This document shows positions 6,137-12,488 of a DNA stretch of 53,267 nt, piece by piece. This DNA comes from an uncultured Christensenella sp. GTDB taxonomy: Bacteria > Bacillota > Clostridia > Christensenellales > DTU072. The translations under genes and the position numbers were made by a program. How positions within the stretch are numbered: the stretch's first letter is position 1; every line of letters begins with the position of its first letter. The notes under the pieces are model-generated. The model worked only from the letters and a program-made list of their open reading frames with translations. It was not told the origin of the DNA and searched no databases. The stretch is taken from the NCBI GenBank assembly GCA_964620655.1, contig CAZUJW010000007.1, positions 1-53,267 on the forward strand, written 5' to 3'.

Positions 6137-7015
6137 ATGAATAACAATAATATTCTTAATAGATTTTTCTCCAGGTCAATCCTTAATGAGATTGTAGTGA
6201 ATGGACACAACACTTGCTATGGAGAAATAATAAAAAGGTATTCCATTGATAAAGACGAAACGAATCAAACTATAATTTCGTCAATCTATTCGGTTTTAGC
6301 ATCTTCTCATCGAAATGAGTATTTTTATAAAAATACACTTTTGAACAATTTGATCATTAAAAAGCATAAATTGTATACAACCAAAGTGCTGACAGAACTG
6401 CCTATTAACAAGTCTATTGCCGATTTTATCACACTTAATGGAAAAGCTGTGGTATACGAAATAAAAACAGAATTAGATAACTTGGATAGAATCGAAGCAC
6501 AAATTCGAGATTATTATAAGTGTTTTCCCTTTGTTTGTATTGTTACTTGTAAAACACATTTGCCCAAAGTTAAGGAATTGTTCGCTAACACTAATGTTGG
6601 CATATATTGGTTTACTAACAGAAATGCTATCAAGGTGGAGCAAGAACCCCAACTGGAAGATTCTTATTTGGAATATGGCGCATTGTTTAAATTGCTACGA
6701 AAATATGAATTTGAAACCATATTGAAGAAAAATTTCCATTCATTGCCAAAAGTATCGCAATTTGATTATTATGCTGAATGCTATAAGTGGTTTATCAAAA
6801 TTGATATTAACAGAGTATTAAAAGATATGCTAGATATTCTAAAGCAACGTTGTATAATACGCGTCGAACAGTTTAATCAAGTTCCATTAGAATTAAAAAT
6901 GTTGGTGTACCAATCTAATTATACTGATAAACAGTATTCTATGCTGGAAACGTTCTTAAATTCAAAATATATCGACGGAGGGCTTGAAAATGTATTTCCC
7001 GTATTTGAGGGGTAG
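6137..7015 (+). CDS. sce7726-family protein, PD-(D/E)xK nuclease-like
   Basis: RNEYFYKN..., EL..NKSIADF...VYEIKTELDNLDR..QI.DY: a D..EIK nuclease-type motif; first gene of a trio. Confidence 0.75.
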   Translation: MNNNNILNRFFSRSILNEIVVNGHNTCYGEIIKRYSIDKDETNQTIISSIYSVLASSHRNEYFYKNTLLNNLIIKKHKLYTTKVLTELPINKSIADFITLNGKAVVYEIKTELDNLDRIEAQIRDYYKCFPFVCIVTCKTHLPKVKELFANTNVGIYWFTNRNAIKVEQEPQLEDSYLEYGALFKLLRKYEFETILKKNFHSLPKVSQFDYYAECYKWFIKIDINRVLKDMLDILKQRCIIRVEQFNQVPLELKMLVYQSNYTDKQYSMLETFLNSKYIDGGLENVFPVFEG

Positions 7016-7913
7016 ACAATTTGAATTGCTTGCAATTCGAGAACTAATCGAACATAACTGTATATCGAATAATATTATACCAATAATAGAACCTGTTAGA
7101 GCTTCTTCTACTTTGTTAAAAACGATTATTCAATGCAAAGAAGCAAAGCAGCATATTGCTTTTATAATAAACCCACATGTCGGATCTTTTTCTAAAGAGT
7201 TTAGAGAATTTGAAAAAAGTAACGAACTTTTAACAGCTATTAAAGATTCAACTATAAAGGCTTGCGTTGTAGATCAATCCATTAACGATCAAGTCAATCG
7301 TCTAACAAAGACCTTTAATTCATCAATAGAGGACTCCTTGTTTGTTTTCGATAAAAAGGATTATATTGAATCATATTTATTGGCCATCAATAATAGCCAC
7401 GCTAAATTCAATCTTATTCCAGATGAAAGGGATTTTCGTAGAAGTATTCGAGATAACAGAGTATTATTAAGTGATGCTTTTGACTCAAAAGATCGTAATT
7501 CTGACTATTCTGATGCGCCAGAATTGTATTCACGAGATCAAATATATTACAAAGAAGATGGGTATATAGGATTTGCGGATTATTCGATAGTAGGAAATAG
7601 GTTTTCGGAAGCAGGTTTTGCTCCATATTGTTTAGTTATACATATTGTTTATTTTGATGAGAAAAATCAATTACTAATTAGACATTTTAAATCATCTTCA
7701 AATGAAGATGCAACCGACCCTGCCAACAAATTTAGAGAAGCCTTACAAAAGTTGCTTTTATGGAATGAGAAACAAAAATTAGATACATATGCGATGCGTC
7801 AATTTAAAAAGATGTATGAAGATGGGGCCTATCCAGGATTAGGGACAATTAAAAAGTTATCATTAATGCACCATATAGAATTGGTAAACAAATTTCTTAA
7901 TGAACCGCTATGA
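6990..7913 (+). CDS. sce7725-family protein (Beta-protein-like)
   Basis: MYFPYLRGRQFELLA.REL, PIIEPV, GFADYSIVG...GFAPY...IH, GLG.IKKLS..HH. Start ATG 6990 follows GGAGG and overlaps the previous gene. Confidence 0.75.
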   Translation: MYFPYLRGRQFELLAIRELIEHNCISNNIIPIIEPVRASSTLLKTIIQCKEAKQHIAFIINPHVGSFSKEFREFEKSNELLTAIKDSTIKACVVDQSINDQVNRLTKTFNSSIEDSLFVFDKKDYIESYLLAINNSHAKFNLIPDERDFRRSIRDNRVLLSDAFDSKDRNSDYSDAPELYSRDQIYYKEDGYIGFADYSIVGNRFSEAGFAPYCLVIHIVYFDEKNQLLIRHFKSSSNEDATDPANKFREALQKLLLWNEKQKLDTYAMRQFKKMYEDGAYPGLGTIKKLSLMHHIELVNKFLNEPL

Positions 7914-8998
7914 AAATATGTAAAAATTGTTTTGCCGATATCGAATTGAAGACCATCGTTTCAAGCCATAGACAAATAGGCGTATGTGATATATGTGGAC
8001 ATGAGGATTATATTTATGACACGACCTTGAATAGTGCATTGATTGATACCATTGACGATTTTATGAATATTTATTCAAAAGCCAATGATGATACTCCTCA
8101 AAAATATAGGATGAACTTAGAAAAGGAACTAATTTATAATTGGAATATCTTTTCGATAAGTTGTGCATACAAAGTAAAGAAGATAGTAGATAGTATATAT
8201 GCATTTTCTGAAGACACAAAAAAGAGATTTGACACTACATTGTTTGATGGAGATGTATATATTCCTTACTTTTTAAATAGTGATTATTTAGAACTGCACT
8301 CTATTATTAAAAATAAACAGTGGGACGAGTTTACATATAGTATAAAACACATAAACAGGTATCACTCAGATATTTTAAACAAAGAACAACTTGATTGTTT
8401 TCTTGATCCACTGGTTATCGATATAAATATTGGTACGCATTTTTATAGGTCGCGCATTTCAGACATCAAAGGGTTTTCTGCTTCTGAAATGGGAATGCCT
8501 CCAACCGAAAGAGCTAGGGCGGGAAGAATAGGAGCGGAAGGAATCCCCTGCTTTTATCTGGCAAACGATGTCGATACATCTATAAAAGAAGTTCGGGCGG
8601 GGGCTTTTGATTATATTACGGTTGCAAAATATAAAGTTAAAAACCCTATTAAGGTTGTTGATTTGAGATTATTAGATCATATTAGTCCTTTTTCAATATC
8701 GGATCCAGCAACCCTTGCGATTAATCGAGAAACGTTATTAAGAATTAAATCTGAAGTAGAAAAACCTGTGCGGCTCATAGAAAACAGTATTGAATATGTT
8801 CCAATTCAGTTTATTTGTGATTACATTAGAAGTAAAGGATATGACGGAATAATTTACAGTAGCACAATGAGTACTACAGGGTACAATCTATCAGCATTCT
8901 CTTCAGAGAATTTCAAATTTGTGAGCAAAGCAGTATATTACATTAAAGATATATCAGTGGTTTCGGAAAAAGCGACAAAACACACAAAAATCGAATAA
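7910..8998 (+). CDS. RES-domain protein with N-terminal Cys/zinc motif
   Basis: CKNC..CDIC N-terminus; FYRSR, GR.GAEGIPCFYLA, EVR, YDGIIYSS carry the R/E/S signature; ATGA overlap with sce7725. Confidence 0.85.
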   Translation: MKICKNCFADIELKTIVSSHRQIGVCDICGHEDYIYDTTLNSALIDTIDDFMNIYSKANDDTPQKYRMNLEKELIYNWNIFSISCAYKVKKIVDSIYAFSEDTKKRFDTTLFDGDVYIPYFLNSDYLELHSIIKNKQWDEFTYSIKHINRYHSDILNKEQLDCFLDPLVIDINIGTHFYRSRISDIKGFSASEMGMPPTERARAGRIGAEGIPCFYLANDVDTSIKEVRAGAFDYITVAKYKVKNPIKVVDLRLLDHISPFSISDPATLAINRETLLRIKSEVEKPVRLIENSIEYVPIQFICDYIRSKGYDGIIYSSTMSTTGYNLSAFSSENFKFVSKAVYYIKDISVVSEKATKHTKIE

Positions 8999-9086
8999 TA
9001 CAGCTATGCTTTTGGGTAAGATTTTTTTATGAGTTTCTCTATTATATATTGACTTAGTTTTTAGAGAAAATCTCAATAACACAAAT

Positions 9087-9122
9087 AAGAAAGTCTGATT
9101 TCGGTCAGTCTTTCTTTTTTTG
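9087..9122 (+). terminator. Rho-independent terminator after the RES gene
   Basis: AAGAAAG-T-CTGA / TCAG-T-CTTTCTT stem plus T tract. Confidence 0.65.
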
Positions 9123-9165
9123 CGTAGTTGTCAAAAAAATTTTTGCAATTTTTTCTTAATAACCT

Positions 9166-9546
9166 TGTAAAACCCATTGTCAAATGTCCTATATAAGTGA
9201 GGGACATTTTTCTTTTGCGAAAAACACGAAGTTTTTGCCCTCTATTGTCCATATAAAGAGAAAAAATCTTTGCCTTAATGAAAAGTTTCCAGTAAACCAT
9301 TAAGTTTCGTACCGAAAATGTCCAATATAAATAGAAGGAGTTTTAAGATTTTTTCTAAAACACCCCGCCAAAAGGTATGGTAAGTGTCCAATTATAGTAG
9401 GAGGATTTTTTGAAAAAGTTCAGTTAAATACCCTAACAAAGAGATGAAAACTTTCCAATATAAATAGAGGATATTTTCAAAAACTTACGAAAAACACCCC
9501 CTCAAACAGGCAAGCAAATGTCCATATATAGTGAACGGAAAAGGAG
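9166..9546 (+). repeat. Degenerate six-unit array, period about 61-73 bp
   Basis: TCC(A)ATATA..AG..G(A)GG cores with TCC at 9187, 9248, 9321, 9387, 9454 and 9521; four are preceded by AAA(C/T)AC 22-23 bp upstream. Confidence 0.7.
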
Positions 9547-9795
9547 ATAACAGATCATGAGTTACAAACAAGTGTACCCGCCTTAGCAGGCAGAAAACGG
9601 AAAGCAAAAGCCCAAAAAAAAATTGGAAAACGAGTACTTTTTACAAGCAGGATAAGGTTTTTGCAATCTATTTCAAAAACGATACGCTGAACAAGTCGGA
9701 AACCGACTTTTCGGAAAGGGCAACATTTGCTCGTATCCACAAGAAGAAATCGCCCTACTCTTACTAAAAATATCGGCGGACTAACGAAAAAGCAC

Positions 9796-9824
9796 TTGAC
9801 TTACGCACACAAAGCGTGTAAAAT
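9796..9824 (+). promoter_or_regulatory. sigmaA promoter for the RHH-recombinase module
   Basis: TTGACT-17-TAAAAT; the spacer contains the palindrome ACGC-N7-GCGT. Confidence 0.65.
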
Positions 9825-9871
9825 ATAGTCGTCGTATTAATACGATTATATATTCACGGAGGAATGAAAAG

Positions 9872-10162
9872 ATGGCAAAGTCAAGAAAGGAAAAAGACAA
9901 AAGATACGAAGAAAGGCACAAGGAAGAACGCAAAGCCAAAAACGTTATATGGGGAACGAGCGTTCCGAGAAAGACGGCGGAAGAAATAAACGAGTTTCTG
10001 AAAAAGTGCGGCTATACGAAGGTAGAACTTATACAGGCGGGCTACGAAGAACTGTTAGCCCGACACGATACCGCCTTTGCAAAATTAAAGGACGGCTACG
10101 ACGACTTTTTCGAGAGCGAACTTACGAAATTCGCAGAAGAAAGAAACACAAACAAAACATAA
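9872..10162 (+). CDS. Small protein, ribbon-helix-helix-like
   Basis: GGAGG RBS; a charged N-terminus is followed by a beta(VIWGTSVP)-helix-G-helix pattern. Confidence 0.6.
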   Translation: MAKSRKEKDKRYEERHKEERKAKNVIWGTSVPRKTAEEINEFLKKCGYTKVELIQAGYEELLARHDTAFAKLKDGYDDFFESELTKFAEERNTNKT

Positions 10163-10285
10163 TCCGTAAGACGAGATACTCTCGCCTTGCGGAAATCTGA
10201 GATAAGGAGGATTTTGCGGTAATGGTGAGAGAACATTACAGCCATCAGGAAAGAGAACATAGTATCCGCGCAATAAGTATGAACG

Positions 10286-10483
10286 TTGAAGCGGATACAA
10301 GAAAACACCGTTGAGGTCAATCTGTCAACGGAACACAAAGAAAAAGGCAGATTAAATCTGCCGAAAGAAAGAATACAAACAAGCGCAAAAATTTTAGCCG
10401 ATATTTTACTCGATTATGCGAGAAACGGCGGTAATATGGACGATTTAACGCCCGAGAGCGTATTCGGCAGGAGGAAGCAATGA
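10286..10483 (+). CDS. Small hypothetical protein overlapping the recombinase start
   Basis: 65-aa ORF with TTG start and weak RBS; its stop overlaps the recombinase ATG. Confidence 0.4.
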   Translation: MKRIQENTVEVNLSTEHKEKGRLNLPKERIQTSAKILADILLDYARNGGNMDDLTPESVFGRRKQ

Positions 10484-12105
10484 AAAAACGAGTAGTGATA
10501 TATGCAAGATTCAGTTCGCACAGTCAGACGGAACAGTCTATCGAAGGACAACTTCGGGAATGCTACGAGTATGCAAAAAGACAAGACCTTCTCGTTGTAG
10601 CCGAATACATAGACCGTGCGCTCACGGGGACTACGGACAAACGACCGGAATTTTTAAGAATGATTGAGGACAGTAAGAAAAAGACTTTCGACTATGTTCT
10701 TGTTTACCAACTTGATCGCTTTGCCCGTAACCGTTACGACAGCGCGAATTACAAAGCAAAGTTAAAGAAAAACGGCGTACGTGTTCTATCTGCAAAGGAA
10801 AACATAACGGAAGACGCAAGCGGAATTTTAATCGAGGGCGTGCTGGAAAGTATGGCGGAATATTATTCCGCCGAACTTTCGCAAAAGGTAAAACGCGGAA
10901 TACGCGAAAGCTACGAAAAAGGTTACTTCATCGGCGGATACGGTTTATTTGGTTATGATATCGTAGATAAAAAATGGGTAATAAACTCTTTTGAAGCAGA
11001 TATTGTCAGAGATATTTTTACAAGATACAAAAATGGCGAAAAGGCGAAAGAAATTATTGCAAGGCTGATCGGACAAGGCATTAAGACGAAAGCCGGTTCG
11101 TCGTTCAATATGAACAGTCTTGCAAGGATAATCCGCAACGAAAAATACATCGGGAAAGTAACTTCGCACGACACGGTTTACACTAACGTCATACCGCCTA
11201 TCGTGGACGAAGAACTTTTTTATGAATGCAACGCCATTATGGACAAGCATAAACATAAACCGCGCGACAGCAAGAGCGAACAGCCATATATTTTAAGCGG
11301 AAAATTGTTTTGCGGATTTTGCGGTAGTCTGATGACCGCCGAAACGGGGACAAGCCATACAGGTAAACTTCATCACTATTACAAGTGTTTCGGAAGAAAA
11401 CGCAACAAACACAGTTGTAAAAAGGCAAATTACAGACAGCAAGACCTTGAAGATCTGGTATTCGGCACGACGGTTAAATACGTTCTGCAACCCGACGTAA
11501 TTCAAACCGTTGCCGAACAGGTCGTTTCAAAATTCAATTCGGAGATAACAAAGACCGCAACGCTTGAAAATCTCGAAAACGAGTTGAAAGCCAAAGAAAA
11601 AGCGATAAATGCACTGCTTGCCGCCATAGAACAAGGCATAGTGACTAAATCCACCAAAGAACGACTGATTTCTCTCGAAACGCAAAAAGAGGAATTAGAG
11701 AGCAAAATTTCTCTTGAAAAGGCTCGGCAGATAAAACCGCTCGAAGTGGACAGAGTAAAAGCGTTTTTAACCTATTTTGCCCGTAAAAAGTATGAAAACG
11801 GGCAAGAAAAAAACGAGTTTTTCAACTCGTTCATAAACCGTGTTATTTTGTATGACGACAAAATTTTAATCTTTTACAACACCGACGATAATCACCCGAC
11901 GGTAATTAAGAGGAAAGACACGGAAGAATTTATTTCGCACTTTAATGACATAGCGAGCAACTGCAAAACCGCAACAAACGACTGTCCGAACACAACGGGA
12001 AACAACAGCCCCATCGTACAAAAGGAAAACTCGCTTGAACCTCAATGGTTCAAACGAGTTTCACTTGGCGGAGCCGAAGGGATTCGAACCCTTGTGCCAA
12101 GTTAA
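10480..12105 (+). CDS. Large serine recombinase (integrase)
   Basis: YARFSS catalytic Ser, SIEGQ, LDRFARN, recombinase domain, LSGKLFCGFCG..YYKC zinc ribbon and coiled coil. The last ~13 codons are read from the tRNA antisense strand. Confidence 0.95.
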   Translation: MKKRVVIYARFSSHSQTEQSIEGQLRECYEYAKRQDLLVVAEYIDRALTGTTDKRPEFLRMIEDSKKKTFDYVLVYQLDRFARNRYDSANYKAKLKKNGVRVLSAKENITEDASGILIEGVLESMAEYYSAELSQKVKRGIRESYEKGYFIGGYGLFGYDIVDKKWVINSFEADIVRDIFTRYKNGEKAKEIIARLIGQGIKTKAGSSFNMNSLARIIRNEKYIGKVTSHDTVYTNVIPPIVDEELFYECNAIMDKHKHKPRDSKSEQPYILSGKLFCGFCGSLMTAETGTSHTGKLHHYYKCFGRKRNKHSCKKANYRQQDLEDLVFGTTVKYVLQPDVIQTVAEQVVSKFNSEITKTATLENLENELKAKEKAINALLAAIEQGIVTKSTKERLISLETQKEELESKISLEKARQIKPLEVDRVKAFLTYFARKKYENGQEKNEFFNSFINRVILYDDKILIFYNTDDNHPTVIKRKDTEEFISHFNDIASNCKTATNDCPNTTGNNSPIVQKENSLEPQWFKRVSLGGAEGIRTLVPS

Positions 12106-12156
12106 TGGCTAACGCATTTCGAGTGCGCCCCGTTATGACCACTTCGATACAGCTCC
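12066..12156 (-). tRNA. tRNA-Ser(CGA)
   Basis: Reverse complement GGAGCTG..GCGCA-CTCGAAA-TGCGT, long variable arm, AAGGG-TTCGAAT-CCCTT, CGGCTCC-GCCA. Confidence 0.97.
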
Positions 12157-12488
12157 ATGTGTTTGAGATTAAGTTGTTTTGTTGTTAGCCATTGCAAGCT
12201 AACGCATTCGCGGGCAATACCGACTTCAGTCGATAGAGGAACAAGGTAAGGAGTTCGCCCGCCAGATTGCTACGCAATTAGCGAGTTACTGCCCCGTTAT
12301 GACCACTTCGATACAGCTCCATGTGTTTGAGATTAAGTTGTTTTGTTGTTAGCCATTGCAAGCTAACGCATTCGCGGGCAATACCGACTTCAGTCGATAG
12401 AGGAACAAGGTAAGGAGTTCGCCCGCCAGATTGCTACGCAATTAGCGAGTTACTGCCCCGTTATGACCACTTCGATACAGCTCCATGT
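12127..12488 (-). repeat. Tandem 164-bp units containing the tRNA-Ser 5' half (2 full units plus a third 34-bp copy)
   Basis: A 34-bp block (tRNA nt 1-30 plus 4 upstream nt) occurs at 12127, 12291 and 12455; the two 130-bp spacers are identical by eye. Confidence 0.95.

Follow-up and report, generated by a model that had tools for sequence, protein, structure and literature searches.

What is an array of short, diverged tandem repeats doing at the head of a recombinase operon? The question is raised by a stretch of 53,267 nucleotides from an uncultured Christensenella sp. (contig CAZUJW010000007.1, forward strand), referred to here as the window or W, which holds part of a small defence island moved by a large serine recombinase. 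Within it, an intergenic region (9121-9620, 33% GC) separates the gene of a RES-domain protein from the regulatory region of an operon for a ribbon-helix-helix (RHH)-like protein, a small protein (ORF65) and the recombinase, and contains six co-oriented, diverged copies of one bipartite unit (9158-9538, + strand). The array is most likely regulatory; judged by their anatomy, such units, 2-9 of them in a row and sigma-I-like rather than sigma-70-like, would drive the mobility operon of Tn4451-like defence islands. The coordinates are collected in Table 1. Related loci carry L-numbers, KTCC denotes the core tetrad, and the two dialects of the core are called type A and type C.

Each unit follows one order: an A/T-rich stretch, AAAYACCCC-N-CAAA, a gap of 13-14 nt, KTCC, 5-6 AT-rich nucleotides and AGTRGAGG. 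When the copies were aligned on their TCC anchors (9187, 9248, 9321, 9387, 9454 and 9521; intervals of 61, 73, 66, 67 and 67), AAAYACC(CC) stood 21-22 nt 5' of TCC and was followed by a (T)GTCC/TTCC core with 5-6 A/T and by the purine run A-R-T-R-GAGG. The original prediction, made from the letters of the window, had placed six units at these anchors and the last three intervals at 66, 67 and 67, and every position matched on re-reading; the ends of the units were indeed like ribosome-binding sites, and the last was followed by an ATG (9557) that opens a nine-codon open reading frame (ORF) behind AAGGAG. The shared box AAA(C/T)AC(CCC), which had been assigned to all six units, proved narrower in reach: the full AAAYACCCC was found only in units 4-6, and units 1-3 are variant subtypes. 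Identity among the window copies was only 69-72% (about 70%), and a 134-bp higher-order periodicity was present in the array. The orthologues of unit 2 in L002-L004 read GTCCATATATAGTGAGG.

Table 1. Positions of the array units and of the features around them (window coordinates; aa, amino acids)
Feature	Positions	Strand	Details
Terminator hairpin	9083..9120	+	Inverted repeat with 16-nt arms and T-run; ends the cargo operon and insulates the array
Unit 1	9158..9204	+	Variant box AATAACC..AAAA; core GTCCTATATAAGTGAGGG
Unit 2	9215..9262	+	Subtype B2: GAAAAACACG..GTTTTTGCCC; core GTCCATATAAAGAG; weakest copy, degenerate
Unit 3	9288..9341	+	Subtype B1: GTAAACCATTAAGTTTCGTACC; core GTCCAATATAAATAGAAGGAG
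Unit 4	9350..9407	+	Subtype A1: AAAACACCCCGCCAAAA, 13 nt, GTCCAATTATAGTAGGAGGA
Unit 5	9417..9472	+	Subtype A1: AAATACCCTAACAAA, 12-13 nt, TTCCAATATAAATAGAGGA
Unit 6	9483..9538	+	Subtype A1: AAAAACACCCCCTCAAA, 13 nt, GTCCATATATAGTGAACGG
Shine-Dalgarno sequence and mini-ORF	9541..9586	+	AAGGAG (9541-9546); nine codons, MSYKQVYPP-stop (9557-9586, ATG at 9557)
Conserved non-coding leader	9643..9795	+	ACAAGCAGGATAAGG box, hairpin (9695-9707) with T-run, DnaA-box-like TATCCACA
Sigma-70-type promoter of the RHH operon	9796..9824	+	TTGACT-17-TAAAAT; promoter scan, 10/12 matches
Palindrome TCGTATTAATACGA	9832..9845		Directly 3' of the -10 of the RHH promoter
RHH-like protein gene	9872..10162	+	96 aa; no Pfam family
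ORF65	10286..10483	+	Conserved small protein, 65 aa; function unassigned
Large serine recombinase gene	10480..12105	+	Resolvase, Recombinase and Zn_ribbon_recom domains (Pfam)
tRNA-Ser(cga), attachment site	12066..12156	-	Recombinase ORF overlaps its 3' end

The pattern TGTCCWWWWWWA was matched five times in the 53-kb window when both strands were searched, and all five matches fell in the array on the + strand, compared with a mean of 0.84 and a maximum of 3 in dinucleotide shuffles of the whole window. The shorter pattern KTCC-W6-R occurred six times in 500 nt (9121-9620), against a mean of 0.23 in 5000 local dinucleotide shuffles, none of which had more than 3, and the motif is therefore significant relative to AT-matched shuffled sequence. 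In a leave-one-out test with a weight matrix of the whole unit, four of the six units scored above all of the ~106,000 other positions of the window, and the remaining two were each outscored by one position. The left half of the unit, AAAYACC, was weak in the ungapped form of the test, clear when insertions and deletions were permitted, and kept in relatives. Tandem Repeats Finder, applied to 8900-9900, reported no repeat, because copies only about 70% alike escape its detection.

The array had been described as an orphan, a term that does not survive the comparison with relatives, as about 45 related loci of gut Clostridia/Christensenellales carry arrays of 2-9 units. A scan for the recombinase in one genome per species returned 80 loci, nearly all of them from Clostridia, Christensenellales or Christensenellaceae metagenome-assembled genomes (MAGs). 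Type A arrays were found in W, L001-L004, L009, L054, L068 and L081, with 88-89% DNA identity over the array in L001-L004, L054 and L081 and a diverged three-unit array in L009 and L068. Type C arrays (core GT(G/C)CTTGGTWWAGTAGAGGG) were found in L017, L031, L035, L042, L050 and L065, and L001 and L117 hold both dialects within one array. About 30 further arrays, all from human-gut samples, were recovered from metagenome contigs with a scan for the bipartite pattern, and an exact-protein look-up of the 96-aa RHH-like protein led to L148-L153 (contigs up to 223 kb), which have a two-unit array only. The six-unit array is real and conserved, recurring in related islands, and the boxes retained across relatives while the spacers have diverged suggest that it is under selection.

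The array, its upstream terminator and its downstream mini-ORF behave as a portable cassette that is exchanged independently of the recombinases. The same array was paired with recombinases that are 63-100% identical: relative to the window, L054 showed 89% identity in the array and 63% in the recombinase, and L081 showed 95% in the RHH protein, 78% in ORF65 and 64% in the recombinase. Conversely, near-identical RHH proteins (97-100%) were accompanied by six units in the window, two in L148 and none in L005/L006 (97%). In contigs of the L115 type, the array and mini-ORF are the same but the operon behind them is a different one, DUF6291-TnpV-RHH-TnpW-recombinase; in L117 a Bro-N gene follows them, and in L100, L103 and L125 remnants lie beside deleted recombinase genes or an IS110 insertion. 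No protein was common to the 5 kb upstream of the arrays, and the cargo differs from locus to locus.

The geometry of the unit was compared in a set of 75 non-redundant units. Subtype A1 reads AAAWTTTT..AAAA, CACCCC(C)-N-CAAA, 13 or 14 nt, KTCC, AATWAT, AGTRGAGG; in subtypes B1, B2 and C1-C3 and in the unit-1 type, core and distance are the same, the upstream box differs and a T-tract replaces the A-tract, and at least six upstream-box subtypes share one core. The gap between A-tract and KTCC measured 13 nt in 21 units, 14 nt in 16, 15 nt in 6 and 12 nt in 2. From one unit to the next, the interval ranged from 54 to 77 bp (median 67; 136 neighbouring pairs), with no common helical phase. Therefore, with a fixed internal and a free external spacing, the units appear to be independently acting bipartite sites and not parts of a phased nucleoprotein array.

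This anatomy recalls the promoters of sigma-I (SigI/RsgI), which are likewise bipartite, with a C-rich specificity region and an A-tract, a spacer of 13-14 nt, a 4-nt -10 element, an AT-rich stretch and a short 5' untranslated region (PMC4711584, PMC10575876). The sigma-I consensus is C-----AAA 13-14(N) CGWA (PMC4711584 Table 1), with CCCYYAAA as the sigma-I3 form and ACCCCC--AA 15(N) CGAA as the Bacillales form (PMC4711584). The -35 element is CCCCCTCAAA in the C. thermocellum cel48S and pilZ promoters and CCCCTCAAA in cipA (PMC4711584 Table 2); the C-rich part of such promoters is paralogue-specific, and the A-tract is read via the minor groove (PMC10575876). Several upstream-box subtypes on one downstream element are a further trait that the array shares with the sigma-I paralogues. 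The -35 pattern of a C, five variable bases and AAA was carried by the A1 units: C-N5-AAA fitted 37 of the 75 units, window units 4-6 (A1) included and unit 1 loosely, and unit 6 carries CCCCCTCAAA, identical to the cel48S/pilZ -35. The sigma-I spacing of 13-14 nt was found as well. As sigma-I transcripts start 9-10 nt past the tetrad, a position occupied here by AGTRGAGG, transcripts from the units would begin with a Shine-Dalgarno-like purine run.

A sigma-70 promoter has a TTGACA-like -35 and, after 16-18 nt, a TATAAT-like -10 with A at position 2 and T at position 6. A reading of the units as sigma-70 promoters was rejected, because the sigma-70 promoter scan gave no match within 9166-9560 and the position 17 nt upstream of the AT-rich hexamer varied between units. 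Type-C cores carry a TGn extended -10-like TGGTATAGT. In an alternative promoter reading, the AT-rich hexamer after KTCC would be the -10 and the C-box an activator site near -45. Between the array with its mini-ORF and the first gene of the operon in L115, the scan gave no sigma-70-type promoter, which leaves the array as the sole promoter candidate for the operon in that sub-family.

On its upstream side, the array is preceded by an identical terminator hairpin in L054, L103 and L116 and by a different hairpin in type-C loci. On the downstream side, the MSYKQVYPP mini-ORF, which terminates in Pro-Pro-stop, accompanies the long type-A array in all relatives; in other lineages the same slot is filled by MKPNTS-stop or MSG-stop, and a strong Shine-Dalgarno sequence with an ORF was found 8-60 nt 3' of the last unit, a usual distance for a leader, in three lineages. 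The leader that follows is ~95% identical in the array-less L005 and L006 and is also shared by L026, on a short contig that ends upstream, so that its array status is not judgeable. In type-C loci, the ACAAGCAGGATAAGG box lies upstream of the array. The DnaA-box-like TATCCACA (9734-9741) is present in one copy, between the array and the RHH promoter. In the array-less L011 (5020-5056) and L012, a strong Shine-Dalgarno sequence with a MNARDRPHI-stop mini-ORF was observed 5' of the AAGCAGGTAAAGG box and hairpin that also mark this leader, and this combination of mini-ORF, box and hairpin may be a separate regulatory device, perhaps an attenuator.

Leader-peptide attenuation by orf12 upstream of the mobility genes is known from Tn916. 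The module resembles that leader in having a short ORF with a strong Shine-Dalgarno sequence and then hairpins in a transcript that reads into excision genes, and differs from it in that the mini-ORFs are not conserved between lineages (MSYKQVYPP, MKPNTS, MSG), L042 has lost the ATG and no alternative terminator/antiterminator pairing was evident.

In the interpretation that we tentatively prefer, the array would be a stack of predicted promoters, served by an alternative sigma factor or by an activator whose gene lies outside the island. Stacked alternative-sigma promoters had been among the original suggestions, and they gave the best anatomical fit to the co-orientation, the fixed 13-14 nt, the terminator, the Shine-Dalgarno sequence with its ORF and the sigma-I-like -35, the part that did not fit being the tetrad, which is not CGWA. 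In all of the ~35 loci in which a downstream gene is visible, the array lies upstream of the RHH/recombinase genes on the same strand and is never inverted, and in the 55 recombinase loci for which 1.5 kb or more of upstream DNA is available it was present in 12 of 19 of the RHH type and in 0 of 36 without RHH, a confinement that fits a role in regulating the RHH operon, although both the orientation and the co-occurrence counts are inflated by shared ancestry and are not phylogenetically independent.

Other observations also weigh against promoters. The units appear to be built like sigma-I promoters, yet they fail at the defining -10: the tetrad was GTCC/TTCC in type A and GTCC/GTGC in type C, and CGWA was found in no unit. 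Thus, unlike sigma-I promoters, in which CGWA is near-invariant, the array has KTCC/GTGC and stacks its units two to nine times; unlike sigma-I systems, it is accompanied by no sigI-rsgI in the island or window and by no visible single-copy regulon members. Neither the window nor L082, the only island read end to end, was found to encode a sigma factor or activator that could serve the units, and in type-A loci a short T-run hairpin (9695-9711) separates the array from the operon. Close orthologues were ~94% identical throughout and gave no position-specific conservation signal, the per-column variability over 20 orthologous arrays being uniformly low and uninformative. Finally, no single-copy motif was found before other genes in ~0.8 Mb of related DNA or among metagenome singletons, and therefore no host regulon is visible for such a factor. 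Single-unit matches in metagenomes outside arrays were chance matches or array remnants, and weak weight-matrix matches in other loci had neither upstream box nor GAGG. The Pfam scan of 105 neighbouring ORFs gave no sigma family among the 25 of 92 families listed.

Tandem promoters that feed one transcription unit are familiar from A1-A2-A3 of the early region of phage T7 and from P1-P2 of rRNA operons. The array has in common with both that co-oriented promoters would lie within a few hundred bp of each other, serve the same downstream genes and give a high or differently regulated output, and with the T7 promoters that they stand at the head of a mobile genome. The known examples have a sigma-70 consensus, occur in sets of two or three and are not versions of one diverged repeat, whereas the array has up to nine paralogous, non-sigma-70 units in variable number. 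It would be a variant of tandem promoters and not a new kind of element; its interest lies in the reading factor and in the link to mobility.

If the units are promoters, the array would form the regulatory head of the mobility module in a small, tRNA-Ser-integrated, recombinase-moved defence island. We infer that each unit of ~45-55 bp would act independently and be read rightwards by RNA polymerase with an alternative sigma factor (or an activator). Its parts would be a UP-like A/T stretch, a C-rich 'specificity' box with the A-tract or T-tract, the 13-14-nt spacer, the tetrad (KTCC, or GTSC in the type-C dialect), a melting region and the start region AGTRGAGG. The terminator upstream of the 2-9 stacked units would block read-through from the cargo, and transcripts would traverse the mini-ORF and an auto-repressed sigma-70 promoter with its operator before reaching the RHH, ORF65 and recombinase genes. 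Activity of the cognate factor would produce a strong, copy-number-tuned burst of recombinase-operon expression, leading to excision or transfer.

The units could alternatively bind a trans-acting protein of the host, of a helper phage or of an integrative and conjugative element, and serve as an iteron origin, centromere, packaging signal or excision enhancer of the excised circle. This is unlikely; in its favour, the motif is confined to the array and the element has tandem direct repeats without replication, partition, transfer or packaging genes of its own (no sigma, Rep, Par, relaxase or terminase gene was found in the window or L082, nor any Rep, Par, TerS or sigma gene in the further stretches that were read, in agreement with the original statement that the element encodes no sigma factor or Rep). 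In one sub-family, moreover, a DUF6291 protein, of unassigned function and also present in phages, is encoded directly after the array. Repeat arrays of plasmids and phages include F sopC, with 12 x 43 bp, and P1 incA. Like iteron or centromere arrays, the array consists of tandem direct repeats in a mobile element, with a protein-binding motif per repeat and, as in iteron or sopC-type arrays, a variable copy number. Those arrays, however, are usually regularly phased and stand beside the gene of their binder (Rep, SopB, ParB), whereas here the intervals of 54-77 bp keep no constant helical phase, the copies are 69-72% alike, in no locus is the gene of a matching binder linked to the array, and the array is oriented with the operon. 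Iteron or centromere membership is disfavoured by this spacing and similarity, the lack of a shared upstream protein and the lack of a Rep/Par match in the window or L082. The array itself has no AT-rich unwinding element or DnaA-box cluster, and its strict co-orientation with the operon and the Shine-Dalgarno sequence with an ORF after the last unit would be left unexplained. A three-core scan of 2.9 million viral contigs (IMG/VR) found the array only in the island itself and no helper with the site, 15 of the 16 matches being unrelated coding or AT-rich repeats. A blastn search of 9000-10480 against phage and plasmid collections gave no match, no unit was found in the prophage next to the L082 island, and the units showed no similarity to the att / tRNA crossover region. 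The helper-phage, origin, packaging and decoy ideas of the original prediction therefore gained no support from the IMG/VR scan, from the purely defensive cargo of L082 or from the search for Rep, Par and TerS.

An extension of the promoter proposal would make the array a multi-input sensor, in which each box subtype is read by a different member of a hitherto undescribed family of sigma-I-like factors with a KTCC-type -10, encoded by host or phage; envelope stress or phage infection would fire the stack and let the island excise and escape, with copy number setting the gain. We consider this version quite unlikely, together with its variant in which the stack additionally titrates an invader's sigma factor.

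The units could also be operators of the RHH-like protein (or of ORF65 or the recombinase), forming a repressed nucleoprotein complex upstream of the operon. Arrays of short repeats are bound by RHH proteins such as omega, ParG and CopG, a precedent to which the restriction of arrays to RHH-gene loci (12/19 vs 0/36) can be added. The RHH family, however, keeps a palindrome of its own, TCGTAT-NN-ATACGA, ~40 nt before the RHH ATG in 26/26 RHH-bearing loci, array or not, with a variable centre dinucleotide (TA, AG, TG, CG, AT, GC, CA, TC) and, in L011 and L012, a second copy upstream of the -35; the window copy (9832-9845) is probably the operator of the RHH-like protein. Because this conserved palindrome is separate from and unlike the units, the array is very unlikely to be an RHH operator. 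The proteins are 97-100% identical whether they occur with six units, two or none, type A and type C cores pair with similarly diverged RHH proteins, L001 and L117 mix both cores, and the units have no dyad symmetry at constant spacing.

Less probable still is that slippage or unequal crossing-over of one ancestral promoter left the array as a neutral relic, of which only the last copy, if any, is used, or that the array works as RNA through a series of structured repeats, in the manner of a type III antitoxin or of a sponge for a protein. The 134-bp periodicity, the variable copy number and the degenerate window unit 2 would suit this idea, while a relic would not be expected to retain its boxes as the spacers diverge and to keep both dialects over about 45 loci. 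A function at the RNA level was rejected: RNAalifold found zero pairs in 12 diverse units, which showed neither a consensus structure nor covariation, the array had no Rfam match at gathering score or E<=1, and fold z-scores were -1.4 (+ strand) and -2.6 (- strand), with no structure recurring from unit to unit; hand-checked hairpins (GAGG...CCTC and TCC-N10-14-GGA) were inconsistent between units. A type III toxin-antitoxin system (ToxI-like, with repeats of ~34-45 nt) was rejected, given degenerate repeats with no unit fold, no toxN-like gene, and RHH, ORF65 and recombinase genes downstream that had no PADLOC match. A decoy that titrates a sigma factor or regulator of an invader or of the host as part of defence is the least probable reading, for the solely anti-phage cargo, the multimerised sites and the at least six box subtypes on one core, which could match several related factors, are set against 2-9 chromosomal sites, which would titrate only weakly, the association of arrays with the RHH-recombinase module and not with cargo, the search that found no phage with the motif, and a constant orientation, upstream terminator and downstream ORF that favour productive transcription.

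Further classes were compared and rejected. A CRISPR array has identical 24-48-nt repeats and unique spacers, whereas these repeats are ~70% alike and their 'spacers' are partly conserved (CAAA, AAnT). The consensus sequences of SigE, K, F, G, H, B, D, sigma-54, extracytoplasmic function sigma factors (AAC-N16-17-CGT), TcdR-type factors and SPO1 gp28 did not fit, and the T4 late TATAAATA occurred in two window units only and not in relatives. A promoter for a T7-like single-subunit polymerase (TATAG+GAGG) would leave the fixed upstream box unexplained, and no such polymerase is present. Boxes for Spo0A, CodY, LexA and ComK gave partial, inconsistent matches only.

The element that carries the array belongs, by the domains of its recombinase and the terminal position of that gene next to the attachment site, to the integrative islands of large serine recombinases. 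The genes to the left of the array encode an Xre-type helix-turn-helix (HTH) protein, RhuM/PDC-S05, type III Mod and Res, sce7726/sce7725 and the RES-domain protein, whose gene ends at 8998 and is followed by the terminator hairpin. Since this cargo is all anti-phage and the recombinase gene ends in a tRNA gene, the window holds the right-hand 12 kb of the island; the left end lies outside the window. The recombinase ORF enters the 3' end of tRNA-Ser by 40 nt on the opposite strand, and the element therefore provides the 3' part of the tRNA after integration. A perfect tandem repeat with a 164-bp period (2.2 copies, 100% matches) occupies 12127-12488 and starts within the 5' half of tRNA-Ser(cga); in each copy the first ~30 nt of the tRNA are joined to about 130 nt of unrelated sequence. 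Serial integrations may have left stacked att scars here, or the repeat may have arisen in the assembly.

The model of the 96-aa RHH-like protein reached a pLDDT of 66, with CopG and Arc as best, non-significant local fold matches, and the protein had no sequence relative in the PDB. ORF65 proteins were 35-97% identical between loci, matched no family and were unrelated to the TnpW of L115, with which a kinship had been considered. At 6137-8998, a sce7726-family and sce7725-family pair (NCBIfam) is followed by the RES-domain protein, which has an N-terminal cysteine-rich region; the three may be an uncharacterised defence module, and PADLOC gave only a weak 'cll' match, for the first gene (sce7726-family).

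The L082 island spans ~12 kb, with a cargo of DUF4238, a superfamily 1 (SF1) helicase, an HTH gene, T5orf172, two methylases, EVE, IceA and a C-protein, after which come the array, RHH, ORF65 and recombinase. The Xre-type HTH gene at the left end of W and that at the corresponding cargo position of L082 are unrelated. In L082 (1-5950), the contig from IMG/VR, the island abuts the end of a prophage, a holin followed by two more large serine recombinases in tandem, an adjacency that suggests serial accretion of recombinase-borne elements at one site; in L005, another recombinase gene ends just 5' of the conserved leader. Among the 105 neighbouring ORFs of array-bearing loci, 18 encode type I restriction-modification specificity subunits (HsdS) and 4 tyrosine integrases, which indicates that shufflon-type phase-variable type I systems are frequent cargo. 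L148-L153, with an identical 96-aa protein, have Dnd/BrxC-type cargo (DndB, SMC-like ATPase, cysteine desulfurase, BrxC/PglY) and adjoin dapB-dapA-asd. L001 and L009 are labelled as Bacteroidales and Coriobacteriaceae MAGs, and their islands are 78-96% identical to those of Clostridia; the labels probably reflect mis-binning of the mobile island and not cross-phylum transfer.

In being small, integrative, moved by a large serine recombinase and loaded with anti-phage cargo, the island is like the Tn4451/Tn4453-type elements (TnpX, TnpV, TnpW) and the SCCmec-like defence islands (PMC11470126). The L115-type genes behind the array match the Pfam families TnpV and TnpW, and the window recombinase scored far below the NCBIfam cut-offs for CcrA, CcrB and CcrC. 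We know of no account of a repeat array in front of tnpX or ccr genes.

Little is known about the timing of excision and movement in small defence islands of this recombinase-borne kind, and the array is a concrete candidate for a control element at the head of a recombinase operon, insulated from the cargo. If the units are promoters, they would define the sequence, with sigma-I-like geometry and a new -10, that an uncharacterised sigma factor or activator of gut Christensenellales and Clostridia recognises, and would connect island mobility to a signal from the cell or from a phage. Binding sites for the Rep, Par or TerS of a helper would instead reveal the way in which an island with nothing but cargo is carried along. 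Either way, the array is useful as a marker of this island family in gut metagenomes.

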